From a virus (lineage: Duplodnaviria > Caudoviricetes): a stretch of 64,000 bases of DNA. Under the pieces are notes generated by a model. The model did no database searches, was not told the origin of the DNA, and worked only from the letters and a program-made list of their open reading frames with translations. Shown in pieces: positions 18,584-57,669 of the stretch; positions within the stretch are counted from its first letter, which is position 1, and each line of letters opens with the position of its first letter. A program made the position numbers and the translations under genes. The stretch lies in IMG/VR virus record IMGVR_UViG_3300025316_001101, one strand, 5' to 3'.

Positions 18584-19346
18584 TGAATGTTACCTTTTCA
18601 ATTCTTGTGTCACCTTGTCTAACTGGCATCCATACAGATTCCCAATCTTCCGGCAATCGCTCGGTCATCTTACTGAGTTTATCTTTCATACGATCTATCA
18701 TAGACTCAGCATCACCAAGAGACAGTTGACCAACATTTATATAAAAAATCAAGATGCCTTTGAGTTTTGTATTCTCTTCATAATAACCATTATGTCGTCG
18801 ATTGCCAATAGAAGAAACATAGCCCTCCATACAACTTTTCAAAAAATCATCCCATTTATCATTTGCTTGATCAGCACCTTCTGCTAACTGTGGATGACCT
18901 AACTCTGCTGAATTTGCATCTTCCTCCTGGATTCTGGCTAACTCAGCCAACTCTTCTTCCTCAGTTCTCTTCTTTAATGTGTAGGTTTCCGGCCCTTTCA
19001 TTGGTGGAATTGGTCGATCCCAATATCCTTGATACCCCACTTCTTTAGTCTGCGTCTCTACTTCTGGAGCTTTGTCACAATACGAACAATTACATCCCTT
19101 AGGATGAATTTCTTCTTCTGTATGGCAACGGCCATCGGTAATCTCCGCTGTTCTATGGAGATTGGGCAATCCCTTTGTACAGCCCTTCCACTTCTCAACA
19201 AGTTCTTTACTGACTACTACGTCATTGACCTTGTTAGAAAATTCTATTACTGCTTTAGCTTGGTCTCTTTTCTTAAACGACCTTTTTTTAGGCTCCTGCA
19301 TTTTTGGATCTAATTTTCCCATATCTTCTTCATCATAACTGTTCAT
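18576..19346 (-). CDS. Hypothetical protein with a C-terminal domain resembling the T4 gp20 portal clip region
   Basis: 'ILIFYINVGQLSLGDAESMIDRMKDK...WMPVRQGDTRIEKV' compared with the remembered gp20-family pattern 'R(I/V)(F/W)Y(I/V)D(V/T)GN(L/M)P..KAE......M...WL.RR.G...TE(I/V).TL'. Confidence 0.5.
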   Translation of the reverse strand: MNSYDEEDMGKLDPKMQEPKKRSFKKRDQAKAVIEFSNKVNDVVVSKELVEKWKGCTKGLPNLHRTAEITDGRCHTEEEIHPKGCNCSYCDKAPEVETQTKEVGYQGYWDRPIPPMKGPETYTLKKRTEEEELAELARIQEEDANSAELGHPQLAEGADQANDKWDDFLKSCMEGYVSSIGNRRHNGYYEENTKLKGILIFYINVGQLSLGDAESMIDRMKDKLSKMTERLPEDWESVWMPVRQGDTRIEKVTFNG

Positions 19347-38460: not shown

Positions 38461-38818
38461 AGAATGGTTAGCATTGGATTACTTGGTCGAAGCTTTCGGA
38501 CAAGAAGAAATAGACTCCCACAAGGTCTTAGATGGGAAGTGGGAGCCCCCACTCAACCAAATTGCTAATGAGCATAATTTCTATTTTAACTCTGAACCCG
38601 ACCCTCAAAAAGAATGTAATGGTCGTCAATGCTATAAATTACATGTTAGTTGCAATTATCATGGCGGAGAAGGAGATGTGGCAAACATTAGTTTCAGACA
38701 TGCTTACTCTGGTTATGGTGATAGATTTAAGTACGGTGCCTCTACGGAAGAAAAGGTTTTGCAAGAAAAGATTGGTAAGGATGTAGTCAATTACCCCTAC
38801 CCTAAAGAGGTTCAATAG
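38450..38818 (+). CDS. CTS-like protein (MNFKEWL), paralog of 41134-41442; C-terminus altered by IS insertion
   Basis: The last ~10 codons lie inside the IS right end. Confidence 0.55.
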   Translation: MNFKEWLALDYLVEAFGQEEIDSHKVLDGKWEPPLNQIANEHNFYFNSEPDPQKECNGRQCYKLHVSCNYHGGEGDVANISFRHAYSGYGDRFKYGASTEEKVLQEKIGKDVVNYPYPKEVQ

Positions 38819-40362
38819 TGGTTTTCATTCGCTTACGCTCACTCGCTCCACTATTGAACTTTCCTTCGGAAAGTAGGGGCTTGGATTGATTAAAAATGTT
38901 TTCAACCAACCTCTTACAAGAGAAAGAATGGATTTTATCCAACCTAATTCTTGAAGGCGTATTGACAACGCCTCTACTGAGTTGAGTCCGAAGACCCTTC
39001 CCGCTACCTGATTTCAGCATAATTCCCAATGCACCGTGCATATCAGCATTGATAATAATACCTGTACTTGACTTGAACAAACCACGCTTTATTCTTCGTC
39101 CTAAATACTCTTCGTGATGACACATTGGTTCATTTGCTAAATGGTCGCACTTTGAAGTATATGCTTCGTTGATGGATTTATATTCAATTCCATATAACTC
39201 ACACTTACTTCGCAATTTCCAAGCAAACTTACCAAACGGAAGCATTACAAAGTTTTGGTTGTTTTTGTCTCCAATGTGACTTCCATCTTGAGCGTGCCAA
39301 CCTTCACCAATTACCACTTTGCCAATTTGATGTTTAATACAAGTTTGAACAATCAAATTGACATATTGATTGAGATGTTCGTTCAATCTACGATTTCTTT
39401 TATCCTCCATTGTTCGCATACGCTTACTTGATTTTTGTCCTTGTGTTTCCAGTATTGATTGTAGTCTTGCTCTCTCCTTATTATACCATTGATTTATGGA
39501 TTTCATTCTACGCCCGTCTAAGATAAACGAGTGTCCAGTTTTACTGTCAAGGCAAGTGGCGAAATTACTTACGCCAGGATCAATACTCAATACACGACTT
39601 TTTTCAAGTTTTGGATGTTCTTGTTCAACTTCATACACAAACTCAATCTCAAAATGCTCTGCTTTACTCTTTGGAAGAATGCGAACCTCTTTTATCCGAT
39701 TGCCTTTGACATTCGGAGGGATTTGATACACAAACTTCTTGAACTTATACTTACTTCGTAAATCTTTTGGCACTGCTACACTAAAATGTTCAACACAATT
39801 TCGCTGTGGAAATATACAGAGGAAATGTCCATCTTTGGGAAGAAAATGAGGTTTTTTGACTGGCTTGTTGTAATTGCCATGTTGTTTCTTTTTCAAAAGT
39901 CCAAAGAAAGAACGAAAACAGCGTTCTACTATTTTCATTGTTTGTTGAGAGGCATCAGTTCCAAGTGCCTTATATTCAGGTCTTACTTTCATTACATGGT
40001 ACGCACTGTTGTAGGTCAAAAATTCTCCGCATTGACCAAAGTGATTGTTAGTTTCCCACAATGTAGAATTGAAAAGATTTTTGCTACGGCGACACATATC
40101 ACGCCAAAACCTAAATTGGCTTCTATCCAACTTCATCTTATTCTTTTGGACTTTGAACATCTCATACTTATATAGTATGATTGCTCATAATTTTTTTATG
40201 AATTCTAAATTATTTTGAAATTATTTTTATTATGGCGGCTTACATCCCACTACCCTAAAGAGGTTCGCTCTGTTCGTTCGGTCGTTCGCCTACGGCTAAC
40301 TTACTCACTCACAGAACAAACATTCCTTTGGAATGTAGGGGTTTCACGCCGCCCCCAGATGA
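38786..40362 (-). mobile_element. TnpB-only (IS1341-like) IS200/IS605-family element
   Basis: tnpB flanked by related subterminal hairpins at 38786-38882 (right end, finishing TAATTGAC) and 40234-40362 (left end). Confidence 0.8.
38802..40160 (-). CDS. tnpB: TnpB RNA-guided nuclease
   Basis: Motifs 'LSIDPG', 'VVIGEGW...Q', 'EAYTSKC' and 'INAD..GA..I'. Confidence 0.9.
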   Translation of the reverse strand: MFKVQKNKMKLDRSQFRFWRDMCRRSKNLFNSTLWETNNHFGQCGEFLTYNSAYHVMKVRPEYKALGTDASQQTMKIVERCFRSFFGLLKKKQHGNYNKPVKKPHFLPKDGHFLCIFPQRNCVEHFSVAVPKDLRSKYKFKKFVYQIPPNVKGNRIKEVRILPKSKAEHFEIEFVYEVEQEHPKLEKSRVLSIDPGVSNFATCLDSKTGHSFILDGRRMKSINQWYNKERARLQSILETQGQKSSKRMRTMEDKRNRRLNEHLNQYVNLIVQTCIKHQIGKVVIGEGWHAQDGSHIGDKNNQNFVMLPFGKFAWKLRSKCELYGIEYKSINEAYTSKCDHLANEPMCHHEEYLGRRIKRGLFKSSTGIIINADMHGALGIMLKSGSGKGLRTQLSRGVVNTPSRIRLDKIHSFSCKRLVENIFNQSKPLLSEGKFNSGASERKRMKTTIEPL

Positions 40363-41916: not shown

Positions 41917-42031
41917 CAATAGTTGTTTGAAAATAACATCTTGCGATGTTAAATAACTAATGTAATTATCAACAACTTTCATATATAATCATAGTTAAGC
42001 AACTATACTGCCCTAGTATTTGGAGCAAAAA

Positions 42032-45000
42032 ATGGCACATTGTTTTATAGATTATAATAGCGGACAAATTAAACGAATCGATCCAGCCATTACAGATTTT
42101 AGTTTACCGGTAGCAAATATAGACATGAGTTTGAGGTGTTTATCTGACTGTAAAGCGGATAAACACTGTGTTGGCGGTGTTCGTGCTGTGGCTACCGTAG
42201 GTACAACTGCAAATACCTGTGATTTAGACAATAGTTGTTGTGGTGGATGTTGTTTCCTGACAGCGGCTTGTGGTGTAACTACCGTCAATGGTGCAAGCGG
42301 CATGATTACTTTAGCTGCTATATCTGGTCAAGGATTGGCTTGTCAGGCTATTAATTGCAACTATTTTTGCAATGTTCTTGCTGGCGGAACCACAGGTCAA
42401 ATTCAATATAATTGTAACAATGGATTTTGTGGAGCAGCAGGACTTTGTTTTAATGCTTCTAACAATAGTGTGGCTATGGGGGCTTCGTCGGCTAGTGGTA
42501 ATTGTTCTCATGCCGAAGGGTCAAGTTGTACTTATGGCTGTTTTTCGCATGCCGAAGGGTTGGATTCTTGTGCGGTTGGTCATTATTCTCACGCTGAAGG
42601 CGGGTGTGGCAAAGCAATAAACATGGTTTCTCATGTTGAAGGTTTTTGTAATTGGGCCTGCGGCAGCGGCACTCCAGGTATTCATGTCGAAGGATTTTGT
42701 ACACGTGCTGATTGTATAGGAGCCCATGCTGAAGGATTTTGTACTGTCGCTTGTGGCATAGGAGCCCACTCTGAAGGATCTGCTTGTGGAGTGACATATA
42801 ATTGGGCCGATGGTTGTGGCGCTCATGTCGAAGGATTTTGTACATGTGCTTATTGTACAGGAGCCCACGCAGAAGGATTTTACGCCTGTGTTTGTGCTTG
42901 TGCAGCCCACGCAGAAGGATTTTGTACATGTGCTTGTTGTGCAGGATCTCACGCTGAAAACTGGTGTAGCAAGGCACTTGGAATCGCATCTCATGCTGAA
43001 GGAACTACTTGTGCTACTAATCTTGGTGCTCATGCTGAAGGTGGAGTGAATTTAGCAAGCCAAATCATCTTTTCATGTGCTTGTTTTGAAGCGTCACATG
43101 TTGAAGGATTTTGTAATTGTGCATGTAATTGTGCAACCCACATTGAAGGGGTTGCTAATTGTGCAATAGGTTTAGCAGCACACATGGAAGGCATGGGGTG
43201 TACCAGTTCATGTGTGCAAATTGCACATGGAGACTATTCTCATGTCGAAGGATATACCAATCGAAACATTTTTGGTTTGGCAGGGCACACAGAAGGATGT
43301 TGTCAGTGTATATGTAATGATGCTGTTTGTTTTAGTCATGTTGAAGGATTTCAAAACTTGTTATCGAGTTGTAGTTCTAACACTAGATGTTGTAGCTGTT
43401 GCTCTGTTGGTACAAAAACGGGTACTGGTTATTGGTGGGATTTCGGTGCAAACTGGGGGGTTATAAAACTTGCTAATCCTTCAACCATTACTGGATGTTT
43501 ATCGTGTAATTGCGGAGGGACATATTGTACAGCACAAACTCTTGCATTTCATCCTAATGGATTTTGCGTTTGTGCTTCTGGCACAAATAACACCTGCATT
43601 ATAGGCTCAACTACTTCAAGTACATTGGTGCCGGTTTATTTTCACCAATGCTCATCCACATTTTCCAGTGGTGGTGGTTGTGTATTTTTACCAATTGCAT
43701 GCACTGATGGGTGTAACGTAAGACTTACTATTAATTTTCAAATGCCAAGTCAAGCTCATGCCGTCCACGTAGAAGGATGTTGGCAGGGTAATTATGGTGC
43801 TGGTAATCCCGCTGATAAAAATATGAATGCTCTACACATGGAAGGATGTTGTCAACATATAAACATGGGCTGTGCTGGTCATCCAATGATGGCTACACAT
43901 ATGGAAGGATTTTGTAATGGTACTTGTGCATCTATTGGTTTTCACATAGAAGGTACTTGTCATTGTGTGGGTACGTGTGGTCACTTTTCTCACCTAGAAG
44001 GGGCTGGCCCTGGCTACACTCCAATTAATTGTCTACAATATGCTCATGTAGAAGGATATAAAAACTGTAGTCTAGGCGGCACCGCTGTATACACTTGCGG
44101 ACTACACCTTGAAGGGTTTTGCTCGGCTATTTGTGCTAACAATGCTACTTGTATTGTTTGTGGAGCCCACACAGAAGGAGGACTGTCTTGTGTTGGTGGT
44201 ATTGCCGCCCATGCAGAAGGATATGGTAGTAAGGCTCTTGGATTTGCTTCTCATGCGGAAGGATGTTGTACCTCTGCTTGTAATAATTACTCACATTCAG
44301 AAGGAAAGTCAACAATTGCCGGAAACGCTACCGCTAGCATAAATGTTCAACATGCAGAAGGATCTCTAACTGCTGCGTGTGGATTTGCTTCACATGCAGA
44401 AGGAAATCTAACTACTGCGTTTGGAATGGCTTCACATGCAGAAGGAGCTTCTACCGTTTCTGGAAGTGGCGATTTCCAAGGACCAGCTTCACACGCTGAA
44501 GGGCTTTGTACCACTACTTGTACTTTGTGGTACGCTCATGCAGAAGGATGTTGCTCATGTATTTGTAGTCTTGGTCACGCTGGACACGCTGAAGGGTGTT
44601 GTACGCAGGTTTGTTCTTGTGCAGGACATGCTGAAGGGGCTTGGTCAAAATCATTGAATACTGCTGCTCATGCAGAAGGTAAAGGAACTTTTGCATGCCA
44701 AGATTCATCGCACGCAGAAGGGTTCTGTTCTTGTGCTAAGTGTCAAAGCTCGCACGCAGAAGGGTGCTGTTCTTTGGCAGATGCTTGTCATTCACATGCT
44801 GAAGGAAGATTAACTTTTACTTGTAGTCCAAGTAGTCACACTGAAGGAGTTTGCTCATTTATTTTAGCAAATTCTTGCGGTGGACACGTTGAAGGATTTT
44901 GCACTGGTTTAACTACCACTGGAGCAAAAGCTGGACACGCTGAAGGATGCTGTTCTCTCGCTAGGACGGCAGGACAACATGCTGCCGCCAATTGCGGGTT

Positions 45001-45412
45001 TTCCACTCTGGGCGATGCTCAATATAGTCGATATGTATTTAAGGCACAAACTATTAATGCGGCTCCTGTAACTCTTGCAACAGATAGTGTTACTGGATAT
45101 GGGATGATAATGCCTGGATCTAAAGCAACAATTATGTTTACCATAAGAGTGGCTGCTCATCATTGTACTGGCAACACTGCCGCTGGTTGGTATTTTAGAG
45201 GAACACTGGTCAATACCGATGGAACACTTAGATTCATCAACAACTCAGACGTAGCAGTAAATTCATGGAATAATTTGGGTGTAGGAAGTACCGTAACATT
45301 AAGCACATCGTCTTTTAATCCTGTTATGTTTAATATTGCAGCAACAGGAGTTGAGGCCAATACTATAAATTGGGTGGCTGTAATGGAAACTTCAGAAGTT
45401 AGTGTGGCATAA
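42032..45412 (+). CDS. Cys-rich tail fibre/adhesin-like protein 1 with H-x-E-G beta-helical repeats
   Basis: Many ~14-aa 'SHAEG..T.A.G' (YadA-head/Hep_Hag-like) repeats; C-terminal 'GDAQYSR...' beta-sandwich. Start moved to the ATG after a GGAG. Confidence 0.75.
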   Translation: MAHCFIDYNSGQIKRIDPAITDFSLPVANIDMSLRCLSDCKADKHCVGGVRAVATVGTTANTCDLDNSCCGGCCFLTAACGVTTVNGASGMITLAAISGQGLACQAINCNYFCNVLAGGTTGQIQYNCNNGFCGAAGLCFNASNNSVAMGASSASGNCSHAEGSSCTYGCFSHAEGLDSCAVGHYSHAEGGCGKAINMVSHVEGFCNWACGSGTPGIHVEGFCTRADCIGAHAEGFCTVACGIGAHSEGSACGVTYNWADGCGAHVEGFCTCAYCTGAHAEGFYACVCACAAHAEGFCTCACCAGSHAENWCSKALGIASHAEGTTCATNLGAHAEGGVNLASQIIFSCACFEASHVEGFCNCACNCATHIEGVANCAIGLAAHMEGMGCTSSCVQIAHGDYSHVEGYTNRNIFGLAGHTEGCCQCICNDAVCFSHVEGFQNLLSSCSSNTRCCSCCSVGTKTGTGYWWDFGANWGVIKLANPSTITGCLSCNCGGTYCTAQTLAFHPNGFCVCASGTNNTCIIGSTTSSTLVPVYFHQCSSTFSSGGGCVFLPIACTDGCNVRLTINFQMPSQAHAVHVEGCWQGNYGAGNPADKNMNALHMEGCCQHINMGCAGHPMMATHMEGFCNGTCASIGFHIEGTCHCVGTCGHFSHLEGAGPGYTPINCLQYAHVEGYKNCSLGGTAVYTCGLHLEGFCSAICANNATCIVCGAHTEGGLSCVGGIAAHAEGYGSKALGFASHAEGCCTSACNNYSHSEGKSTIAGNATASINVQHAEGSLTAACGFASHAEGNLTTAFGMASHAEGASTVSGSGDFQGPASHAEGLCTTTCTLWYAHAEGCCSCICSLGHAGHAEGCCTQVCSCAGHAEGAWSKSLNTAAHAEGKGTFACQDSSHAEGFCSCAKCQSSHAEGCCSLADACHSHAEGRLTFTCSPSSHTEGVCSFILANSCGGHVEGFCTGLTTTGAKAGHAEGCCSLARTAGQHAAANCGFSTLGDAQYSRYVFKAQTINAAPVTLATDSVTGYGMIMPGSKATIMFTIRVAAHHCTGNTAAGWYFRGTLVNTDGTLRFINNSDVAVNSWNNLGVGSTVTLSTSSFNPVMFNIAATGVEANTINWVAVMETSEVSVA

Positions 45413-45434
45413 AAAATAATTGGAGTAATATAAA

Positions 45435-48400
45435 ATGTCAATATATTGTTTTTGTGATTATTGTTCCGGGCAGGTAAAATGCATATCCCCTGAACCAACG
45501 AATCAGACTACACCTTCTTGGGCTATAGACGTGAGCTTAAAGAATCTATCTGATCAAAAGCAAAATAGTAGTGATTTATGCTTATTTGCCACTACTGGTA
45601 AAACTAGCGATCTGACCAATGGAGCAGGATTTTTAACTAGTGTTACTGGCGTAAGTTGTATTTTTAATGGAAGTTATTTATGTGGAGATGTTACTTTGGC
45701 CACAATAGCAGTTAGTGGAAAAAGTAGTGACTTAGTGAATACTCCTGTTACATTCTTCACCCCTAGCAGTATTATTGAAGGAGTATCTGGGAATGGCAAA
45801 GTTCAATATAATAATACTATTGGAACAGCAAAAGCTATTGCAGGATCATCAATAAAATTTTCTGGGGATGATTCAAGAAATGTTACAGAATCCTGCGGTA
45901 CAGTAGATATAAATGGATTTTGTAATCACACAGAAGGATTTGGATATGCAGACGGACGTTGGAATCACGCAGAAGGATCTGGATACACCGGCACAGAAGC
46001 GAATCCAGGTTGTTCAAATCATGCAGAAGGATTTTGCACTTGCGTTGCACATTGCGCAAATCATGTTGAAGGATTTTGTACCTGTATCGGTTATAATGTT
46101 GCAGCAGATGGTTACGGTGCTCACGCTGAAGGATTTTGTACTTGTGCTTGCGCTAATTACGGTGCTCATGCCGAAGGATTTTGCACTTGTGCCATTGGTC
46201 GAGGTGCCCATGCAGAGGGAGCAGCAATAGGATATGGCACCGCTGCTGTTTATAGATACCCAACTGCTGCATCCGCTGGATCGCATGCTGAAGGTGTCGG
46301 CACTTGTGCTGCTGGCATTGGATCGCATGCTGAAGGTGTAGCATCTCCCAATACAGATCTTGCCAATCCAGTCATTAGCGGTGGATGTGCGTGCGGTGTC
46401 GGATCGCATGTTGAAGGCGTTGGCTCCTGTGCGATGGGAGATGCTTCGCATGCCGAAGGATGTTGTACACGTGCTGATGGAGTTGCCTCTCACTCCGAAG
46501 GGTTCTGTACATGTGCTTCTGGTATTGGAGCACATGCCGAAGGAACGTTTAGATGTGTGACAGGAACTTGCTCTACAGCTATAGTATTTAATAATGCTGC
46601 TGGTGATGGTTCCCATGCCGAAGGCATGGGAACCTGTGCTACAGGATTTGCATCACATGCTGAAGGTATAGCGGTTTCTAATGGCGATCTTGCCAATCCA
46701 GTTCTTTATCCTGTTTGTGCTGGTGGTTGTGGTTCTCATGCCGAAGGTGGAGGAACCTGTGCTCTGTCAACCGCAGATCATGCTGAAGGATATCGCACAT
46801 GTGTTTGTGGGTGTATGTCACATGCTGAAGGATTTTGCAACGTAATTTACGATAGCCAAGTCAATGGGTATCGGCCTTGTGCTTCACATGTAGAAGGATT
46901 TTGCAATATAGTCATACATTGTGTTTCTCATGCTGAAGGTTGTTGTAATATTGTAGGAAGTCAGATATCGCATGCTGAAGGCATTTGTAATCGCATCTCT
47001 GGATTTTGTGATAGTGAGGGTGTAGCCAATCACATTGAAGGTTGTTGTAATTATATAGGATTTTGTAACTGTGCTACACATGTTGAAGGATTTTGTAATG
47101 CTGCTGGATCTTGTGGTAGATTTAATCACATAGAAGGATTTTGTGGCAAAATAGCAGACACCATTGGATTCTGCGGCGTCCACATAGAAGGCATGGGTGG
47201 ACTGGGATTTTGTAATGCAGTACACGTGGAAGGCATGTGTTTTTGCTCTAATACAAGTGTTTTTGCTGAACTTTCTTGTACTTTAGTAGCTACAAGCGGA
47301 ACGGTTAGTGGATTTTGCATGGCACGTTATGCTCCAGTTGTTACATTATCTCCATTCTGTAACCCTACACATTACGGTGCAATGATTGGATGTGTGATGT
47401 GCGGTGCTTCTAATCCACCTACCACAGTTGTCCAATGCTTTGTTGTTGATTCTGTTGGAACGTTGTGTATTGTATGTAATTGTGGAACTCCTTCCACTTG
47501 TATTTGTCAAGCTTGTGTGCCTACAGCTATTAATTTAACCACTGGAGCGTGGGGAAATATTCCCATGTGTGGATCAACTGGTAATGTGGCATTAAAATAT
47601 TCTTATTATTGTGTACCAACCTTTATTTATAATAGAGCAAGTGATTGTGCTGCCCACGCTGAAGGCGTGGGCACATGCGCAATGGGTTACGCATCACATG
47701 CTGAAGGCATGGCTGCTCCTTTACAATCACATACTTACGATTCTGCGATGTGTTGTGAGGTTCTTAGTGTTCCAAATCCTGTTTGTGCTAGTTGTCGTGG
47801 TTCTCATGCCGAAGGAGGAGGAACTTGTGCTTTGGCTGTAGGTTCACACGCTGAAGGATACAGAACATATACCGATCAATGCGGGTCTCACGTAGAGGGC
47901 TATAGAAATATTATTCAATCTTCTATTGGTTGTGGCTCACATGCTGAGGGATTTTGCAATGTGTTAGGTGAGGGAGGAGCTAGTAATCTTGTCGCTGGTC
48001 ACGTTGAAGGCATGTATAACGTTTATTGTTGTGCATGTTATTCTCACGTAGAAGGTTGTTGTAATGTTTTATGCACAGGCGCTAATTATACACACATGGA
48101 AGGTTATGGAAATAGAGCTACACCAATAGCTATAGCTTCCCACGTTCAAGGCTTTTGTAATTGTATTGATGCTGCTTTTTCCCACGCTGAAGGTTGTTAT
48201 ACTTATGCCGGTGGAGCCGCCTCTCATGCAGAAGGCACCTGCACCCGTGCGGGTGCAGGTGCTTCCCATGCCGAAGGGTGTGGATCATGTGCTTGCGGGA
48301 TTGCTTCCCACGCCGAAGGATGTTGTACACGTGCTGATGGGGTCGCCTCTCACGCTGAAGGGTTTTGTACATGTGCTGGTGGTGATGCCTCTCACGCTGA

Positions 48401-48965
48401 AGGCTATTATACTTATGCTAGTTGTATAGGGTCTCACGCAGAGGGTATTAAAACGTGCGCATACGCACTAGCATCGCATGCAGAAGGATGTCTTTCTTGT
48501 GCTTGTAAATTAGGTCAACACGCATCAGCGAGTGGTGTAATTGGCACAGAAACCCCTGGTAAGGTTGGAAGTGCGCAATATAGCAGATTCCATTTGATGG
48601 CAAAAACGACTTTGAGTGAAACAGTTGAATTAACGATTGGCAATCAAGGTGGCGTCATTACTTTACCGCCGAGTACAACATGGATGTATACTGTAAAAAT
48701 AGTAGCTAGTAAAGCTGGGTCTGTTAGTGGAGGAGCTTGGTTTATACAAGGAGTTATAAATAAATATCTAACTCTAGATTCAGTTGCATTAATAGCACCT
48801 ACCGTTACAGAGTATGAATGGAACACTATGGGAGGTGGATCTATAGCTATAGATGCGGCTTATGATGGTTCTATTAGTTGGTTAAGAATTCAAGCAACCG
48901 GTACAGGAGCCGCTACTCGTTGGAGTGCGATTGTAGAATGTGCAGAAGTTATTATTAAAGCATAA
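45435..48965 (+). CDS. Cys-rich tail fibre/adhesin-like protein 2
   Basis: Same repeat architecture; C-terminal 'GSAQYSR...'. Confidence 0.75.
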   Translation: MSIYCFCDYCSGQVKCISPEPTNQTTPSWAIDVSLKNLSDQKQNSSDLCLFATTGKTSDLTNGAGFLTSVTGVSCIFNGSYLCGDVTLATIAVSGKSSDLVNTPVTFFTPSSIIEGVSGNGKVQYNNTIGTAKAIAGSSIKFSGDDSRNVTESCGTVDINGFCNHTEGFGYADGRWNHAEGSGYTGTEANPGCSNHAEGFCTCVAHCANHVEGFCTCIGYNVAADGYGAHAEGFCTCACANYGAHAEGFCTCAIGRGAHAEGAAIGYGTAAVYRYPTAASAGSHAEGVGTCAAGIGSHAEGVASPNTDLANPVISGGCACGVGSHVEGVGSCAMGDASHAEGCCTRADGVASHSEGFCTCASGIGAHAEGTFRCVTGTCSTAIVFNNAAGDGSHAEGMGTCATGFASHAEGIAVSNGDLANPVLYPVCAGGCGSHAEGGGTCALSTADHAEGYRTCVCGCMSHAEGFCNVIYDSQVNGYRPCASHVEGFCNIVIHCVSHAEGCCNIVGSQISHAEGICNRISGFCDSEGVANHIEGCCNYIGFCNCATHVEGFCNAAGSCGRFNHIEGFCGKIADTIGFCGVHIEGMGGLGFCNAVHVEGMCFCSNTSVFAELSCTLVATSGTVSGFCMARYAPVVTLSPFCNPTHYGAMIGCVMCGASNPPTTVVQCFVVDSVGTLCIVCNCGTPSTCICQACVPTAINLTTGAWGNIPMCGSTGNVALKYSYYCVPTFIYNRASDCAAHAEGVGTCAMGYASHAEGMAAPLQSHTYDSAMCCEVLSVPNPVCASCRGSHAEGGGTCALAVGSHAEGYRTYTDQCGSHVEGYRNIIQSSIGCGSHAEGFCNVLGEGGASNLVAGHVEGMYNVYCCACYSHVEGCCNVLCTGANYTHMEGYGNRATPIAIASHVQGFCNCIDAAFSHAEGCYTYAGGAASHAEGTCTRAGAGASHAEGCGSCACGIASHAEGCCTRADGVASHAEGFCTCAGGDASHAEGYYTYASCIGSHAEGIKTCAYALASHAEGCLSCACKLGQHASASGVIGTETPGKVGSAQYSRFHLMAKTTLSETVELTIGNQGGVITLPPSTTWMYTVKIVASKAGSVSGGAWFIQGVINKYLTLDSVALIAPTVTEYEWNTMGGGSIAIDAAYDGSISWLRIQATGTGAATRWSAIVECAEVIIKA

Positions 48966-48980
48966 ATTGGAGTATGTAAA

Positions 48981-51962
48981 ATGTCAACACATTGTTTTGT
49001 TAGTTGCTATAATGGCCAAGTGCAATTGCTAAATTGTACAGGGGACTTATCCCCCGATAGTCCAGCATTAAATGTGGATAATAGTTTGCGAAATTTAGCT
49101 GTACAAAAGCAAAATTATAGTGAATTATCAGCCGCAGCAAAAAGTGGAAAATCGTGTGATGTAGTTAATGACTGTGGCTTCTTAACATGCGTCACTGGAG
49201 TACAATCGGTAAACACTTGTCACGGAGCCATTACTTTACACACAGTTGCAACCAGTGCAAGAACTTGCGACATGGTTAATGACGCTGGTTACATCACTTG
49301 TTTTAGTTGTACTCCCGCAGGTATGGCAGATCAAATACAATACAATTGTGGCGGTGTTCTTTGCGGTTCAGAGGGATATAAATACATACTGGCCGACTGC
49401 ACTGTGGTGGAAAGTGGCGGAATAGTAATTGGCGGCGCTAAATGCTCACACGTTGATGGTGCATGTTATACTGTAGTTTGCTGTAGTTGTTCGCACGGCG
49501 AAGGATTTTGCAATAGAGTTCGTGGCTGTGTTGGTCACGTAGAAGGATGTAACAACAGTACGTGTGAGTCTTTTTCACATTCCGAAGGATGTGGAAATAT
49601 GTCAACATGTAGTTCGAATTATTCTCATGCTGAGGGTCATACCAATACTCTTTGTTGTAGTTGCTTTGGTCACGTAGAAGGGTATGGCAATTGTGCAAGA
49701 GGTACATTTATTCACGCTGAAGGATTTTGCGGCTGTTTTGGTGCAGGCAACGTTACCAGTAGTGCTGGTCACATGGAGGGCGTAACTCCAATAGGTTCAA
49801 CAACGAGTTCATTTCATGCTGAAGGTTTTTGTACACAATCTAGCGGCACAATAAGTCATGCTGAAGGCATGTATACCAAAGCTTTATCGATTGCCGCTCA
49901 TGCTGAAGGTTTTTGCGCATGCGCTTGCAGTGGTGCATATCTTGGCGCTCATGCTGAAGGCTTCTGCACATATGCTACTAATAGCAACACTCATGCCGAA
50001 GGTTTTATCCGATATAGCGCAACGGCCACTCCAAACGTAATCTACAATTGCGCATGTGATCTAAGCAGTCATGTGGAAGGTGCTGGAAATTGTGCTCTTG
50101 CGGCAGCGGCTCATGTTGAAGGAGCAGCATACGGGTCTGGAGCCACACATATCATTAATTGTGCGGTTTGTTTTGCCGCCCACGTTGAAGGCGTTGGAAA
50201 TTGTGGCTGTGGTGGTCAGTTTAGTCATATTGAAGGAGGATGTCATTATATTTGTTGCACTGGGTCATCCTATGGCTGTGCCACTCACATGGAAGGATTT
50301 TGTAACGTCGTGTACTCGAACCAGACTCAAATAGCTCATCACATAGAAGGGTATGGGAATATTGGGTTCTGCGGCAGCAGTTACATGCACATAGAAGGAT
50401 TGTGTAATATGGGCTATGCTTCACCGGGAAGTAAACCTCTTCATGTAGAAGGATGCCAAACATTTGCTTGCGGTGGTCAGATACATGTAGAGGGTGTATG
50501 TACCTGTGCAAGCGGTGGTGGTAACAACATACACATGGAAGGATGCAGAAATAGAGCGGTATCTGATAATGCACATGTTGAAGGATTTTGTAATTTTATA
50601 CCGTGTACTGGCACGCAAGGGCACATAGAAGGGTTTTGCAATTTGATTACCACCGTAACGAACACACAGCACGTGGAAGGATTTTGTAATTTTGTATGTG
50701 CTGGCATCGCAGATCATGTTCATGGCGCTTATAATAAGGTTATAGCTTGTAATTCATCTTGTAATATGGGTAATCACACTCAAGGACTTTGCAGTGTTTT
50801 ATGTACCTCCTGTGCTGTGGGTTCTCACGTTGAAGGATTTTGCAATTATATCGCTTACTCACCAGTGTATATTTGCGGTAATCATATGGAAGGATTTTGC
50901 AATTATCAAGTGTGTGGAGATGCTTCACACATGGAAGGATCGTGCAATAGAGCATGTTGCTACGGCGCTCATATTGAAGGTATATGCAATTGTATAAGTG
51001 CGCAGTGTATACATGCAGAAGGTGGCTGTCATTGCATTGGCATAGGAGCTACTCCTAGTAATATGCATATTGAAGGATTTGGTGCGTGTTTGGGAAATTC
51101 ATCTCAATGTAATTCTCATCTAGAAGGATATAAACCATTCGCTACATGCATTGGTTCTTGTACCAATTACGACATGCACATCGAAGGATGTTGTAATATT
51201 GGTGCTGGTGATGCGGTTCATGCCCAAGGATTTTGTACATGTGCATGCTGTTGTATGGCTCATACCGAAGGGTGTTGTACCTGTGTTGGATTTTGTTATG
51301 GTCATGCCGAAGGGTGTTGTACAGGTGTTGGTGGAAACGCTGGTGGCCATGCCCAAGGATTTTGTACCAAAGCTTGTGGTCTTGCTTCGCACGCAGAGGG
51401 ATTTTGCTCTTCAAATTCGGTTACTGCTCCTTATTCTCATGCAGAAGGATTTTGTACCGCAACATGTTGTTGTGCATCTCATGCCGAAGGATTTTGTACA
51501 TCTGCTTGTGGTCAGGCCGCTCATGCAGAAGGATATGCTTCTAGTGCTAATTTAACCGCTCAACACACTACATCTAGTGGAATATTCGCAGTTGGATCAT
51601 GTCAGCCCGATAATAAACACTTTAGATATTATAGCCAAGTATGCACTGTAAATGCTTCGACATTGCCCATTGCAAACTTCGCATTAAGTGGAACCACTGC
51701 ATACAATATGCACATATCAGCTTACAATAAATCTTGCGATCTTGGTGCTGGATTTTATGTATGGGGCCTAGCCAATCCATCAGGTGGTATATGTTGCTGT
51801 TGTTGTGGTTATAATGAAGTTGGTCCCGGTGCAGTAAATGCTGTTACTGGTATTACAGTGGGATTCTCCACTAACTGCATAGTTGCTTGCGCAACAGGAT
51901 GTGCGGCTCAAAATATATTATGGCACATGGTTGTTACGGCAGTAGACATATCAACTTTTTAA
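48981..51962 (+). CDS. Cys-rich tail fibre/adhesin-like protein 3
   Basis: Same repeat architecture. Confidence 0.75.
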   Translation: MSTHCFVSCYNGQVQLLNCTGDLSPDSPALNVDNSLRNLAVQKQNYSELSAAAKSGKSCDVVNDCGFLTCVTGVQSVNTCHGAITLHTVATSARTCDMVNDAGYITCFSCTPAGMADQIQYNCGGVLCGSEGYKYILADCTVVESGGIVIGGAKCSHVDGACYTVVCCSCSHGEGFCNRVRGCVGHVEGCNNSTCESFSHSEGCGNMSTCSSNYSHAEGHTNTLCCSCFGHVEGYGNCARGTFIHAEGFCGCFGAGNVTSSAGHMEGVTPIGSTTSSFHAEGFCTQSSGTISHAEGMYTKALSIAAHAEGFCACACSGAYLGAHAEGFCTYATNSNTHAEGFIRYSATATPNVIYNCACDLSSHVEGAGNCALAAAAHVEGAAYGSGATHIINCAVCFAAHVEGVGNCGCGGQFSHIEGGCHYICCTGSSYGCATHMEGFCNVVYSNQTQIAHHIEGYGNIGFCGSSYMHIEGLCNMGYASPGSKPLHVEGCQTFACGGQIHVEGVCTCASGGGNNIHMEGCRNRAVSDNAHVEGFCNFIPCTGTQGHIEGFCNLITTVTNTQHVEGFCNFVCAGIADHVHGAYNKVIACNSSCNMGNHTQGLCSVLCTSCAVGSHVEGFCNYIAYSPVYICGNHMEGFCNYQVCGDASHMEGSCNRACCYGAHIEGICNCISAQCIHAEGGCHCIGIGATPSNMHIEGFGACLGNSSQCNSHLEGYKPFATCIGSCTNYDMHIEGCCNIGAGDAVHAQGFCTCACCCMAHTEGCCTCVGFCYGHAEGCCTGVGGNAGGHAQGFCTKACGLASHAEGFCSSNSVTAPYSHAEGFCTATCCCASHAEGFCTSACGQAAHAEGYASSANLTAQHTTSSGIFAVGSCQPDNKHFRYYSQVCTVNASTLPIANFALSGTTAYNMHISAYNKSCDLGAGFYVWGLANPSGGICCCCCGYNEVGPGAVNAVTGITVGFSTNCIVACATGCAAQNILWHMVVTAVDISTF

Positions 51963-53195: not shown

Positions 53196-53234
53196 AAAAA
53201 CCCAATGTCGGCCTACGCCGACATTGGGTTTTTT
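53196..53234. terminator. Bidirectional terminator of the CAATGTCGGC family, also downstream of the tRNA
   Basis: aaaaacccaatgtcggc-ctac-gccgacattgggttttt. Confidence 0.85.
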
Positions 53235-53236
53235 AG

Positions 53237-53344
53237 TAGCCGAAGCGGGACTTGCACCCGCACGGAGGTTACCCTCCACAAGATTTTAATTCATAGCGAT
53301 GACTGTCGCTTGTCTTGTGTGTCTGCTAATTTCACCATTCGGCC
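53237..53344 (-). tRNA. tRNA-Leu(UAA), type II, with a 22-nt insertion between positions 32 and 33
   Basis: Acceptor GGCCGAA/TTCGGCT, D-stem GTG/CAC, anticodon stem CAAGA/TCTTG with loop C|T-TAA-AA, variable arm GGAGG-GTAA-CCTCC, T-stem GCGGG/CCCGC; no encoded CCA. Confidence 0.85.
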
Positions 53345-53345
53345 A

Positions 53346-54254
53346 TCAACTATTTAGCAACTTCCCCATTCTATCTATAGCGTTTTGTCTTCGCAAATGA
53401 GTTTTGGCATATTCTTGACCAGCTTTACCTATCATTTCTGCCTTTTCGGGATTCTCCACAGTCCAATTAACTGCTTGCAACATCCCTTCCGCCGTTTCGG
53501 CGGAAGGGATGTAGTGTACCCAAGGCTGAAAACTGCCATCGAACCAGAACCATTGTTCATATTTACGATCTGTAGCAATTATTGGCCTTCCTGTAGCTAG
53601 CAACAGCGGAAGCCGTCCACTATGCCCATTTGCCGTCAAATCAATTAGAATTCTATATTTACAATGCTCTACGAGGGTAATATAATCGCTGGTGTGCTGG
53701 TAAAGGTTGGTTTTATCCCGTCGATTCCATTCCATCATGCGAATATCCATAAGATCTGGATATTGAGCCGCCAAATCATTGGCTACCACTCTAGTTGGGT
53801 GGGTATTGGCACCGATCCAAAATGCCCGTGAATTGACTGGCAACACCTCTCCTGCCCGCACCAATTCTTGAAAGGTTGTTTCATAGTCCAAAATTCCTAC
53901 TTCGGGCCATGCATCAAACACAAAGTTGGGCATGCATTTATCTAATAGGTCTTTTGAAGTAATGGAAAACGAAAAGTCGGCAGCATGATTAAAAATGTCA
54001 CCAGTATCAATGTGAATCATTTTTTCTGGTCTAGACTGGTCACTTTTTACACATTGATCCCAAGCTGCCTTGAGCAAACGTATTAAAGATGGGTGTCTAG
54101 TTTCATGACATCCATAGTCATTAAATTCTATTTTGGCATGATCATAGATCATGTCTAATTTTTCTTTACCGTAGTGTATACGGTTAGTCGTCTCTCGGGT
54201 CGGCAACGTCAATTTTGTAATCAGCTTCTTCATCAAATTTCTCGAACATTTCAT
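53346..54254 (-). CDS. Glycosyltransferase family 90 (CAP10-domain) protein
   Basis: 'HCKYRILID...GHSGRL..LL..G..I...WF...FQPWVHYIP...V.W...NPEKAE.IG..G.EYA'. Confidence 0.8.
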   Translation of the reverse strand: MKCSRNLMKKLITKLTLPTRETTNRIHYGKEKLDMIYDHAKIEFNDYGCHETRHPSLIRLLKAAWDQCVKSDQSRPEKMIHIDTGDIFNHAADFSFSITSKDLLDKCMPNFVFDAWPEVGILDYETTFQELVRAGEVLPVNSRAFWIGANTHPTRVVANDLAAQYPDLMDIRMMEWNRRDKTNLYQHTSDYITLVEHCKYRILIDLTANGHSGRLPLLLATGRPIIATDRKYEQWFWFDGSFQPWVHYIPSAETAEGMLQAVNWTVENPEKAEMIGKAGQEYAKTHLRRQNAIDRMGKLLNS

Positions 54255-55599
54255 CTACGGATGTATATCGGTTGGGTTCCACTTCTTTTTCATAGGATGT
54301 CTCTTTTTCAATGTCTTCCTTGGCTTCTTCCCAAGGAATCGTTTTCTCAACACCAGATTTTACATCTTCAACTCGTTGTTTCAAATCTTCGCACATTTCC
54401 TGTGCTTGTTCTGGTCCACCATAGAAAGATACTTCCCAATAAACAGTATCAAGAATTTCCAATAAAGTGAAATGCTGTTTGCCGATTGAAATTTTATTCT
54501 CAAAATGTTCGTACACGTCTAAAGTATCATCAGCTACAATTGAAAGATCAGCCAATTCACACATCGGGGTGAAACCAATGCCGTAGTGTTGGGTTTCTGG
54601 CGAAGGCACGGGATTACCATCTTTATCCTTGACGCCATACTTTACCCACTCTGCCTTTTCTTCTTCGCTCAATGGCCCGTAACCATGAATATCGCAACCC
54701 ATACCGATGTCACGATCTTCTTTGTATACATGTACTTCACCACGTCTTGTCAATTTCAAAAAATACAAAGTGGTAGGAGTTGCAGGCAACTTAGCAGCAG
54801 CATGGAATTCATCAATGGAACGGCACCAAGAGTATTGAGCAATCAGGCATTTGAGTGCTTCATTTGAATCTACAAAATTGAACAAATCTCGCAGACTGAA
54901 ATTTTCCGCAATCGAACAAGGGCTCATCAAATATTGTAGGGGATCAAGTTTCTCTCCTATTGCATTGAAAACCCCATCTTTTTTCAAATAAATTTCTTCG
55001 ACATCATCAGGATGACGACCGAATAGACTTTCCAACATTTCAAGAAGCGTGAAACAATAAGTACCTTGCAAGACTACTTTGCCATCATCGTATATCTTGA
55101 ATTCCTCATCCAGTTTTAGAGGTACATCCCAATCAGCGTGAGGGATGGTAAAACTATTGTTGGATACAATGGTCAACATTCCATCCAAGCCGACTAATCC
55201 TTCACGACTAATGATGAGTGGGCCATTGGTTGTAGATTCAGGCTCTTCCTTTTGACGTTGATAGTCAAACAGCGGCAGCATCGCCAGGGCCAACAGTTCG
55301 AGTTCTTCAGTATTTTTAATAAAATCCATCAAATCTCTTAGGGTAAAACCCTCTTCGATTTGAATTCGATCTCGCAAAGAAGTGAAGACGTTATTGACCG
55401 GGCCGATGTCATAGAAAAAATCATCGGCATCTTCCGGTGTGTTGGCTGTAAAAACGATTTCACCGCTTTCACGGTTTACAATGACACATTTGCCATCTTT
55501 TTTACGACGTTTGTGTTCACCGCAACGATCACCATTCCATTCGCACTTAATCAAACCCTGTTTCGTTAGTGTCAAGCCAGCATCCATATCGTTCTCCAA
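54184..55599 (-). CDS. Hypothetical acidic protein with internal duplication
   Basis: ORF track; repeated 'F(T/S)LRDL..F' and 'FTLLE.L' segments. Confidence 0.55.
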   Translation of the reverse strand: MENDMDAGLTLTKQGLIKCEWNGDRCGEHKRRKKDGKCVIVNRESGEIVFTANTPEDADDFFYDIGPVNNVFTSLRDRIQIEEGFTLRDLMDFIKNTEELELLALAMLPLFDYQRQKEEPESTTNGPLIISREGLVGLDGMLTIVSNNSFTIPHADWDVPLKLDEEFKIYDDGKVVLQGTYCFTLLEMLESLFGRHPDDVEEIYLKKDGVFNAIGEKLDPLQYLMSPCSIAENFSLRDLFNFVDSNEALKCLIAQYSWCRSIDEFHAAAKLPATPTTLYFLKLTRRGEVHVYKEDRDIGMGCDIHGYGPLSEEEKAEWVKYGVKDKDGNPVPSPETQHYGIGFTPMCELADLSIVADDTLDVYEHFENKISIGKQHFTLLEILDTVYWEVSFYGGPEQAQEMCEDLKQRVEDVKSGVEKTIPWEEAKEDIEKETSYEKEVEPNRYTSVDEMFEKFDEEADYKIDVADPRDD

Positions 55600-55615
55600 T
55601 GCAAATGTACAAAAA

Positions 55616-55820
55616 AAATTGCCCCGTACCCACGCTTCTGTTCTATGTAGTCATTTCTCTATTGGCCGCTACCCGTCCTCGTCGAGCCGTTCATCCTCTC
55701 AGACTGTTTGCGTTACAACCTCGGAAGTGCAAGCGACTTACGTCTCCTTCCTTAAACGGTGTTGGCGTGAGGTTCCTCACATCCCAGTTACCTGGGGTAG
55801 TGCGACTACTCGGGCAATTT
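55616..55820 (-). ncRNA. rnpB: Minimal RNase P RNA (catalytic domain with reduced S-domain)
   Basis: CR-I GAGGAACCUCACGC, CR-IV AGAGAAAU and CR-V ACAGAAGCGUGGGUA. P2 GUAGUC/GACUAC; P4 ACC-U-CACGC/GCGUG-GGU with bulged U; P5 CAAC/GUUG; P6 CCGUU/AACGG; P15 CGC/GCG with L15 GGGUA; P16 and P17 present. Confidence 0.88.
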
Positions 55821-55824
55821 CCTT

Positions 55825-55853
55825 ATTATAGCGTAGATTGCTTGGTTTGTAAA
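55825..55853 (-). promoter_or_regulatory. Sigma70-type promoter for the RNase P RNA
   Basis: TTTACA (55853-55848), a 17-nt spacer, then TATAAT (55830-55825); predicted start near 55818-55820. Confidence 0.8.
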
Positions 55854-55972
55854 CCATAGCTTGGAAGTAACGACTTGATCGTTTGCGCAACTGCTGATCT
55901 ATCCACAACATAGAGGCTGGGAATAATATTGAGAGCCATGCATACCAATGTTCTTGTCTTCCCACCAGTGAA

Positions 55973-57187
55973 TTACCCCGCCGCTAAAGACGGCGGGGCT
56001 TCCAGTCCAGACAGCAGCCCACTCAAAGCAGGTCTTACGCCATGACAACTGGCTATCTCCGTAATTCCTACGGTTCTATTTTCTAAATTTATTCCTTGTC
56101 TCAATATGTTGGTCGCAGCGTTCCTATCTCGGTCAAGTTTTGTCTCACAACGAGGACAAATCCATTCTCGGTCAGCAAGTGTTAGTTCATCGTTGATGTA
56201 GCCGCAATGATTACAAGTTTTACTGGATGGAAACCATCGGCTCACTTGTATCAACTGACGACCATACCACTTTGCTTTGTAGGTTATCTGCCGAACCAAC
56301 TCATACAAAGAACAATCCCAAATACTTTTAGACAACCTACGATTTTTCATCATACCAGAAATGCACAAATCCTCCAACACGATAGTTTGGTTTTCACTAA
56401 CGATTTGATGGCTGACCTTGTGTAGATGGTCTTGACGAATGTTGTGGATGTAATTGTCTAACTTTGCGAGGCGTAATCGTGCTTTCTGTCTCCCTTTGCT
56501 ATCTTTTTCAGTTCTGGATAGTGCTTTGGCTAATACTCGCCTACGCTTCTCCAAACTGCGATAAGGACGAATATTTGGATAGGTTTTCCCATCCGAACAA
56601 GTCGCAAGTGCTTTCACGCCTAAATCAATCCCAACCGCCTTTTCCACAACAGGCAGTTTAGGAATATGTCGCTGAACACCAATACAGGCAAAATACTGAC
56701 CCGCTTTATTTTTGCTGATAGTAGCGTTTCGGATTTCGCCTTCAATGGGTCGGTGTAATGTAATTTCAATACCCTCTCGGAACTTCACAATATGGAGTTT
56801 GTTGATACGAACCTCAACATGTTGAGGAACACGGAAGGATTGCTTGTGATTTCTTTTCTTAAATCTCGGAAATTTAGCCAAGTTCTTATAGAACCTGTTG
56901 AAACCAGAGTCCAGATGTTTGAGGGCGTGCTGTAATGATTGACTATTCACTTCATTCAACCAGTCCAATTCATCCTTGACTTTTGTTAGTTCTTTGGCAT
57001 CATCGTTGTAGTTCAAAGACTTCTTTTCCAAGTCCTTTTCTTTGGCTTCAAGATAGAACTTTACACGGCGGTCAAGGAAACGATTATACACAAAGCGGAC
57101 GCAGCCGAAGTGCTTGGAGAGTTTAATTTCCTGCTCTTTTGTTGGGTAAATCCTGAACTTGTATGTATAATCCGTGTGTTGTTCCAT
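55973..57187 (-). CDS. tnpB: TnpB RNA-guided nuclease with intact-looking RuvC
   Basis: HTH 'YKFRIYPT'; RuvC motifs 'GIDLG', 'IVLEDL' and 'DRDRNAA'; zinc finger CNHC/CPRC. Confidence 0.95.
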   Translation of the reverse strand: MEQHTDYTYKFRIYPTKEQEIKLSKHFGCVRFVYNRFLDRRVKFYLEAKEKDLEKKSLNYNDDAKELTKVKDELDWLNEVNSQSLQHALKHLDSGFNRFYKNLAKFPRFKKRNHKQSFRVPQHVEVRINKLHIVKFREGIEITLHRPIEGEIRNATISKNKAGQYFACIGVQRHIPKLPVVEKAVGIDLGVKALATCSDGKTYPNIRPYRSLEKRRRVLAKALSRTEKDSKGRQKARLRLAKLDNYIHNIRQDHLHKVSHQIVSENQTIVLEDLCISGMMKNRRLSKSIWDCSLYELVRQITYKAKWYGRQLIQVSRWFPSSKTCNHCGYINDELTLADREWICPRCETKLDRDRNAATNILRQGINLENRTVGITEIASCHGVRPALSGLLSGLEAPPSLAAG

Positions 57188-57243
57188 TGCTTCCTATACT
57201 GATTTCTGATATAGTATAGTATGCAACTCGGAGAAAATTTTTC

Positions 57244-57669
57244 ATGGCAAAAAAGAAAAAATTTAAGAAATACAAAAGTTCGTCTCACGCCAAGTTTCTT
57301 CTGAAAGCCCATGTCATTTTCGTGACCAAATATCGGAAGAAAATTCTGGTGAATGCTATCAACGATGCGATGAAGCAGATACTTTTTGATATTGCTAATG
57401 AGTCGGACTTCACGATTGAAACAATGGAGAGTGAGAATGGCGACCATATTCACATGCTCATTGATTATCCGCCACAAATCTCTATTAGCAGTATTGTCAA
57501 TCGGCTGAAAAGTATGTCCACCAATCGTATCTGGCAAGGTGGTTGGGCTACATTCTTGAAGCAAAGGTTTTGGGCAGAACATACTTTTTGGTCGGATGGT
57601 TATTTTGCTGCCTCCACTGGTGATGTAAGCACAGAGGCAATTCAGCGATATATTGAAGAACAAGGATAG
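57244..57669 (+). CDS. tnpA: IS200/IS605 Y1 HUH transposase
   Basis: Motifs 'HVIFVTKYRKK', 'DHIHML', 'FWSDGYF' and 'IQRYIEEQ'. Confidence 0.95.
   Translation: MAKKKKFKKYKSSSHAKFLLKAHVIFVTKYRKKILVNAINDAMKQILFDIANESDFTIETMESENGDHIHMLIDYPPQISISSIVNRLKSMSTNRIWQGGWATFLKQRFWAEHTFWSDGYFAASTGDVSTEAIQRYIEEQG

Follow-up and report, generated by a model that had tools for sequence, protein, structure and literature searches.

The DNA analysed here (the window, i.e. the whole stretch of 64 kb) is phage-like and encodes a UvsX-like recombinase, a DnaB-like helicase, helicases and a fragment of DNA polymerase A. Its minus strand harbors a gene for a small RNA with the conserved elements of RNase P RNA. 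RNase P is the RNA enzyme which trims new tRNAs, and its RNA is treated as a universal housekeeping ribozyme of cells. The mini RNase P RNA is read from 55820 to 55616, and the features of the locus are as follows:

55825-55853, minus strand: sigma-70-type promoter, with TTTACA (55853-55848), a 17-nt spacer and TATAAT (55830-55825)
55616-55820, minus strand: mini RNase P RNA gene, ~205 nt, about half the normal length
55820-55812 / 55624-55616, minus strand: P1, 9 bp, 5' strand AAAUUGCCC, read from the sequence
55809-55804 (GUAGUC) / 55652-55647 (GACUAC), minus strand: P2, 6 bp
55802-55778, minus strand: P3, with an outer CAC/GUG helix, a UA/AU internal loop and CCCAG-GUAA-CUGGG
55765-55778, minus strand: CR-I and the P4 5' strand, GAGGAACCUCACGC
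55773-55765 / 55635-55628, minus strand: P4, 8 bp, bulged U at 55770
55764-55761 / 55719-55716, minus strand: P5, 4 bp
55759-55755 / 55691-55687, minus strand: P6, 5-bp pseudoknot into the P17 loop
55723-55751, minus strand: S-domain stub, 29 nt between the P5 strands
55751-55747 / 55727-55723, minus strand: stub helix, P7-like, GGAAG/CUUCC
55744-55735, minus strand: hairpin inside the stub helix, GAC-GUAA-GUC
55667-55712, minus strand: P15-P16-P17 module, including the L15 loop
55712-55710 / 55669-55667, minus strand: P15
55704-55702 / 55677-55675, minus strand: P16
55701-55698 / 55686-55683, minus strand: P17
55674-55670, minus strand: L15 loop, GGGUA
55628-55661, minus strand: CR-IV, P2 3' strand, CR-V and P4 3' strand, consecutive
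55661-55653, minus strand: CR-IV, UAGAGAAAU
55641-55636, minus strand: CR-V, ACAGAA, then the P4 3' strand GCGUGGGU
55618-55611, minus strand: U8 run, into which the P1 3' strand (55624-55616) extends
54184-55587, minus strand: ORF of 467 aa and unknown function; its start lies 24 nt beyond the U-run
55973-57669: complete IS605-family element just upstream of the promoter, with tnpB at 57187-55973 (minus strand) and tnpA at 57244-57669 (plus strand)

The individual elements were checked against the sequence. All helices listed in the first-pass annotation (P1-P5, P6 and P15-P17) were found where it had placed them, as were CR-IV, ACAGAA and GGGUA, and CR-I was present too. The reduction of the S-domain to a stub made of the GGAAG/CUUCC helix and the enclosed hairpin was borne out, and so was the absence of P18, as only 5 nt (GCCAA) lie between the 3' strand of P15 and CR-IV. 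The pseudoknotted order P2, P4, P2', P4' is present, and CR-IV is followed by the 3' strand of P2 and the ACAGAA junction. With the bulged U of P4, J5/15, the L15 GGU, P15-P17 and P6 all in place, the proposed bacterial type A catalytic core stood. The P1 pairing was recovered by both the minimum-free-energy and the centroid fold. The single-sequence fold beats shuffled sequences only modestly (z = -2.2), as expected of a pseudoknotted RNA. That the gene is real we regard as close to certain.

The TTTACA-N17-TATAAT promoter directly upstream and the U-run after the gene, both claimed beforehand, were likewise found. The promoter matches the consensus at 11/12 positions, and no other promoter-like site turned up in the scanned 700 nt (55400-56100). 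Transcription from it would begin at most a few bases away from the start of P1; use of the promoter is inferred, as is ribozyme activity of the RNA. No canonical hairpin-plus-U terminator was called on the minus strand here. The U8 run is a possible terminator, and termination at this point is inferred.

Genomic setting of the window copy

Only distant phage relatives of the window were detected. Metagenomes from several freshwater and lake studies contain the same DNA, and in them the RNA gene and the IS junction are identical; in these DNA runs neither variants in the RNA gene nor an IS-free form was seen. The window copy is atypical: it is a solitary gene with a promoter of its own, and the 64 kb contain no tRNA gene. 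Two mini RNAs in other phages (LR756502.1 and LR756511.1, see below) are likewise without a tRNA gene within 3 kb.

Among the runs listed, none from RNA contained the window gene. A freshwater-sediment RNA library (run X16) yielded a 193-nt contig which matches only 36 nt of the window, at 55697-55732 in the P15-P16 region. The flanks of this contig read as the family consensus, and it represents the RNA of a relative or DNA carry-over, not expression of the window gene.

The 467-aa ORF downstream may be read through from the promoter of the RNA. It could be assigned to neither a Pfam nor a PHROG family, phages and IMG/VR yielded no relatives, and there was no usable Atlas match; neither this ORF nor the three other neighbouring genes tested had a relative in any fetched locus of the RNA family. 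Since the neighbours are not syntenic in the relatives, the RNA was taken to be an independent gene and not a leader element of the 467-aa ORF. Farther downstream, between convergent genes at 53197-53232, a perfect 16-bp hairpin is flanked by A and U runs and resembles a two-way terminator. An atypical tRNA considered at ~53237-53346 was discarded, as neither ARAGORN nor the tRNA model of Rfam (E up to 10) detected it. At 42020-51962 there are three ORFs in tandem (1,130, 1,176 and 993 aa), all belonging to PHROG 25468; the middle one, which was the one tested by BLAST, resembles tail fibre/spike proteins of Verrucomicrobia and Flavobacterium phages.

Upstream, the end of tnpB is 120 nt from the promoter and on the same strand, with 152 nt between the tnpB stop and the start of the RNA. 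A second, divergent tnpB is located at 38802-40160, 16 kb from the first element. Metagenome contigs from these lakes contain further copies of the 3' end of the first element's tnpB, and these copies vary at 56004-56011.

Relatives, family models and covariation

At gathering thresholds Rfam gave no match anywhere in the window, as had been thought possible. The suggested cause was the divergent P4 sequence; we attribute the miss mainly to the missing S-domain, and the two causes were not separated. In a permissive scan, RNaseP-T (RF02357) matched end to end over the full model and at exactly 55616-55820 (37.1 bits, E 2.5e-6, ~2e-4 when scaled to the 64-kb window). This alignment includes CR-I, CR-IV and CR-V. 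As the gathering score is 60, the match does not reach the curated threshold.

IMG/VR was searched with a CR-IV/CR-V pattern, TAGANNAATG-N7-15-ACAGAANCNNGNNTA. At least 120 loci matched, and nearly all that were listed have the full CR-IV/P2/CR-V/P4 module. Among the matches listed, 65 distinct sequences carry CR-I 116-212 nt upstream. The spacing in the window is 117 nt; ~30 sequences among the matches listed fall into a class of 116-131 nt, and ~20 among them have the full-length bacterial spacing of 231-281 nt. An insert at the P18 position (P15 to CR-IV) is carried by some larger family members. An exact-core pattern, AGAACAGAAGCGNGGGTA, hit 3 loci in IMG/VR, which were dismissed as chance matches without RNase P signal.

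BLAST of the whole locus against GenBank phages at the default threshold returned nothing. GenBank relatives surfaced only when the RNA alone was used as query at a loose threshold, and they were then confirmed with R1, a covariance model built from 29 relatives with the window left out and spanning CR-I to the 3' strand of P4. The nearest GenBank relative of the window RNA is that of LR756502.1, a 642-kb uncultured phage (positions 3022-3178 of the fetched locus L125; R1 121 bits), which lies outside the pattern. Further members were found in LR756511.1, a 595-kb uncultured phage (2881-3047 of L127; 114 bits), and in the cultured Stenotrophomonas phage DLP6 (KU682439.2; 2842-3035 of L126; 81 bits), both of which came from a BLAST search separate from the pattern scan. 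In the GenBank records of all three phages the mini RNA is unannotated. That of DLP6, at ~105.8-106.0 kb, lies between a hypothetical CDS and tRNA-Arg (directly 5' of the latter), within an annotated tRNA cluster. The unusual P3 design of the window RNA is common to LR756502.1 and the family locus L118.

Applied to the window, R1 matched 55780-55627 over its full length with 140 bits (E 3e-32) and flagged no non-canonical pair; this was the only strong match in the 64 kb. The seeds of R1 were chosen by a pattern which the window also fits, so that part of the 140 bits arises by construction. A weak match at 19256-19333 on the minus strand (16 bits, E 0.018), in which most of the model is skipped, is probably spurious.

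The absence of covariation among homologs had been named in the first-pass annotation as one of three outcomes which together would refute an RNase P RNA. Covariation was found. In an alignment of the window with 29 short-class sequences (A1, 30 in total), RNAalifold predicted de novo P4, P5, the stub helix with its hairpin, P15, P16 and P17, and 22 of the 29 RNAalifold pairs had changed on both sides. Helix columns were also counted in Python, with 500 shuffles and slid helices as controls. P4, P5, P6, the stub helix, P15 and P16 each scored above all 500 shuffles and all slid controls, with the following shares of canonical cells:

P4: 99.6% canonical cells in 30 sequences, 5/8 pairs changed on both sides
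P5: 100% canonical cells
P6: 87% canonical cells
Stub helix: 95% canonical cells, covarying
P15: 90% canonical cells
P16: 91% canonical cells

For P2, the hexamer after CR-IV has a perfect 6-bp partner in 60 of the 65 sequences from the matches listed; with hexamers swapped between sequences, this was the case in 14.3 on average and in 21 at most. The P2 hexamer of the window is unique within this set of 65. Regarding single residues, the bulged U of P4 (55770), A118 of J5/15, G158 of L15 and ACAGAA are invariant in A1, and the second J5/15 adenine as well as G159 and U160 of L15 are conserved in at least 90% of its sequences. Judged by sequence, the window RNA is a member of a large and well-conserved mini RNase P family in big, tRNA-rich phages.

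Unpaired bases of the stub (55723-55751; A1 columns 125-176), among them G, A, G and A, are invariant as well, with G-GAG before the hairpin and A-C after it, and the hairpin loop varies within the family (GNRA, UUCG and others). The conserved stub junction may have a role of its own, e.g. in stacking on the substrate or on P5.

tRNA genes and the protein partner

tRNA genes were present in the loci of 27/33 relatives, often 10-24 of them, and several abut the mini RNA. Altogether, the 64 family loci contain 686 tRNA genes in 606 kb, and in 61% of these a CCA is encoded at, or directly behind, the predicted 3' end, which fits the retention of the CCA-binding L15 loop. In four loci (L064, L038, L095 and L016) every tRNA gene close to the mini RNA carries the anticodon CUA. 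These were called tRNA-Pyl by ARAGORN and were read as amber suppressors, which hints at a reassignment of TAG in some of the phages with a mini RNA.

An RnpA homologue is encoded by LR756502.1 at ~525.1-525.5 kb (L128:1408-1803). It matches PF00825 with 52 bits (E 3.4e-14) and has a basic RNR-type motif, KRAVDRNRVKR; this phage may thus make a complete RNase P holoenzyme. RnpA was absent from four of the five relatives' records. In the window, none of 10 small ORFs matched Ribonuclease_P, and tblastn with the RnpA of LR756502.1 gave nothing significant. Because these four records and the window show none, RnpA of the host is the likelier partner in most cases.

Known RNase P RNAs and the proposed function

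A usual type A RNase P RNA is roughly 380-400 nt long. The catalytic domain of type A (RF00010; M1 RNA of E. coli, encoded by rnpB) is matched by the phage RNA element by element, with P1-P5 including a 6-bp P2, CR-I in the GAGGAA-NN-U-C register with its bulged U, the J5/15 adenines, CR-IV, ACAGAA, P15-P16-P17, the P6 pseudoknot and the L15 GGU, which pairs with the 3'-CCA of the tRNA. Unlike type A, the phage RNA has a 29-nt stub in place of the S-domain (P7-P14, CR-II and CR-III), lacks P18, is phage-encoded, is only ~205 nt long and scores below the Rfam gathering score. In its architecture it is a bacterial type A catalytic domain, but it falls outside RF00010 as that family is defined.

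The comparison with archaeal type T drawn in the first-pass annotation held for the overall architecture only. Type T (RNaseP-T) is of similar size (208 positions in the Rfam model), lacks most of the S-domain, is the best Rfam match and has a P4 sequence close to that of the window. However, the RNA fails the defining features of type T itself. Type T has an archaeal-type core with a 3-bp P2, and its true members score 117-169 bits (PMC3579882), whereas the phage RNA has a 6-bp P2 and bacterial P16, P17 and P6, scores 37 bits, and is found in a phage behind a bacterial promoter. The resemblance is one of convergent reduction, and the phage RNA does not belong to type T.

Engineered C-domain RNAs (Eco CP RPR and the Pfu C-domain) cleave substrates without an S-domain, with or without the C5 protein (PMC5839562). 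P6-type pairing matters in them and P18 is dispensable, in agreement with what the phage RNA has and lacks. These RNAs are laboratory deletions of reduced efficiency, whereas the phage RNA is a natural, conserved gene with a small conserved stub. The only viral precedent found in the literature is the RNase P-like RNA of camelpox virus, which has merely some similarity in secondary structure and did not process pre-tRNA in vitro (PMC3001073). In contrast to this RNA of a eukaryotic virus, the phage RNA keeps all universal core motifs and shows covariation. No description of a phage-encoded RNase P RNA was found by full-text searches of the literature or in the 2020 paper on huge phages.

We propose that the gene encodes a trans-acting RNase P RNA which has been cut down to the catalytic domain. 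Its own sigma-70 promoter probably yields an RNA of ~205 nt, which would build the P1-P4 core including P4, the active-site helix with the bulged U. The L15 GGU loop would hold the 3'-CCA end of a pre-tRNA and the J5/15 adenines the base preceding the cleavage site, and the RNA would then remove the 5' leader. The partner is most likely a bacterial RnpA, either of the host or encoded elsewhere in the phage, and in infected cells the RNA would serve to mature the tRNA arrays of the phage itself. Isolated C-domains of the E. coli and P. furiosus RNAs cleave substrates without an S-domain, and P6 matters for this while P18 does not (PMC5839562), which matches the set of elements that the phage RNA has kept (P6) and dropped (P18). 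In vitro, RNAs consisting of the C-domain only are much less efficient (PMC5839562).

Overall, we judge it likely, with a good deal of room for doubt, that this is a trans-acting catalytic-domain RNase P RNA which matures phage tRNAs, probably together with RnpA. That it acts as a catalyst in maturing phage tRNAs is probable: sequence, fold, covariation, family membership and the relatives' link to tRNA clusters were observed, and transcription, partner, substrates and cleavage are inferred. For the fuller proposal, that large phages have a minimal RNase P of their own, a natural C-domain-only ribozyme which with RnpA from either host or phage makes the maturation of phage tRNA arrays independent of the host's rnpB RNA, we see only slightly better than even chances.

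The reduced form of the RNA also leaves room for a decoy or regulator, which would retain the face of RNase P RNA that binds the protein and would soak up the RnpA of the host or compete for pre-tRNA, thereby reshaping host tRNA maturation. The RNA has lost its S-domain and C-domains on their own catalyse only weakly (PMC5839562), rnpA is missing from the window and from four of the five relatives' records, and the inactive camelpox virus RNA has been discussed as a possible decoy (PMC3001073). However, the L15 GGU, the J5/15 adenines, the P4 bulged U and P6, all of which are conserved or covarying, would not be needed to trap a protein, and genes inside the phage's own tRNA operons fit processing better than sabotage. 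We therefore hold a decoy to be unlikely, though not negligible.

An active ribozyme might instead be specialised for substrates without a normal tRNA elbow, such as unusual tRNA-like RNAs of the phage or mRNA leaders, and not for tRNA maturation in general. This would agree with the loss of the domain that reads the T/D-loop elbow and with the position of the window copy, which has an ORF immediately after it and no tRNA genes nearby. Most relatives, though, lie among ordinary tRNA genes that ARAGORN recognises, and 2.3 kb downstream of the window copy no atypical tRNA was detected (ARAGORN; Rfam tRNA model, E up to 10). Such a specialisation appears rather improbable to us.

A length of half the normal and a score below every Rfam gathering threshold could also point to a functionless, decaying fragment of a captured host rnpB. 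This is very hard to reconcile with the compensatory changes which all helices show among dozens of divergent phages and which indicate selection on the fold, or with an intact promoter and an identical sequence in lake metagenomes from several studies. Finally, an RNA of the IS605 element (TnpB omega RNA or another transposon-end RNA), suggested by the tnpB that ends so close upstream on the same strand, was rejected and has next to no support left, as contigs common to other IS copies begin at ~55971-55975 and the shared sequence stops there, no TnpB relative occurs in the 64 family loci (606 kb), and the RNA has a separate promoter, neither overlaps nor abuts the 3' end of tnpB, and matches RNase P models and not omega-RNA-like families.

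To our knowledge, natural loss of the S-domain is known only from one archaeal family. If the reading as a trans-acting catalytic-domain RNase P RNA is true, the phage RNA would be the smallest natural bacterial-type RNase P RNA, for use in structural and mechanistic work, and natural minimal ribozymes of ~155-250 nt could test how substrates are recognised without the domain that reads the T-loop. The family also marks an annotation gap, in that its genes fall under the Rfam thresholds and are unannotated even in published genomes such as that of DLP6, a phage which offers a cultured test system for the mini RNase P. The occurrence of both rnpA and a mini RNA in LR756502.1 hints at complete phage-encoded holoenzymes. 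Part of tRNA biogenesis would, if the proposal holds, be a phage-controlled step, with 5' maturation joining the translation functions that phages bring along.
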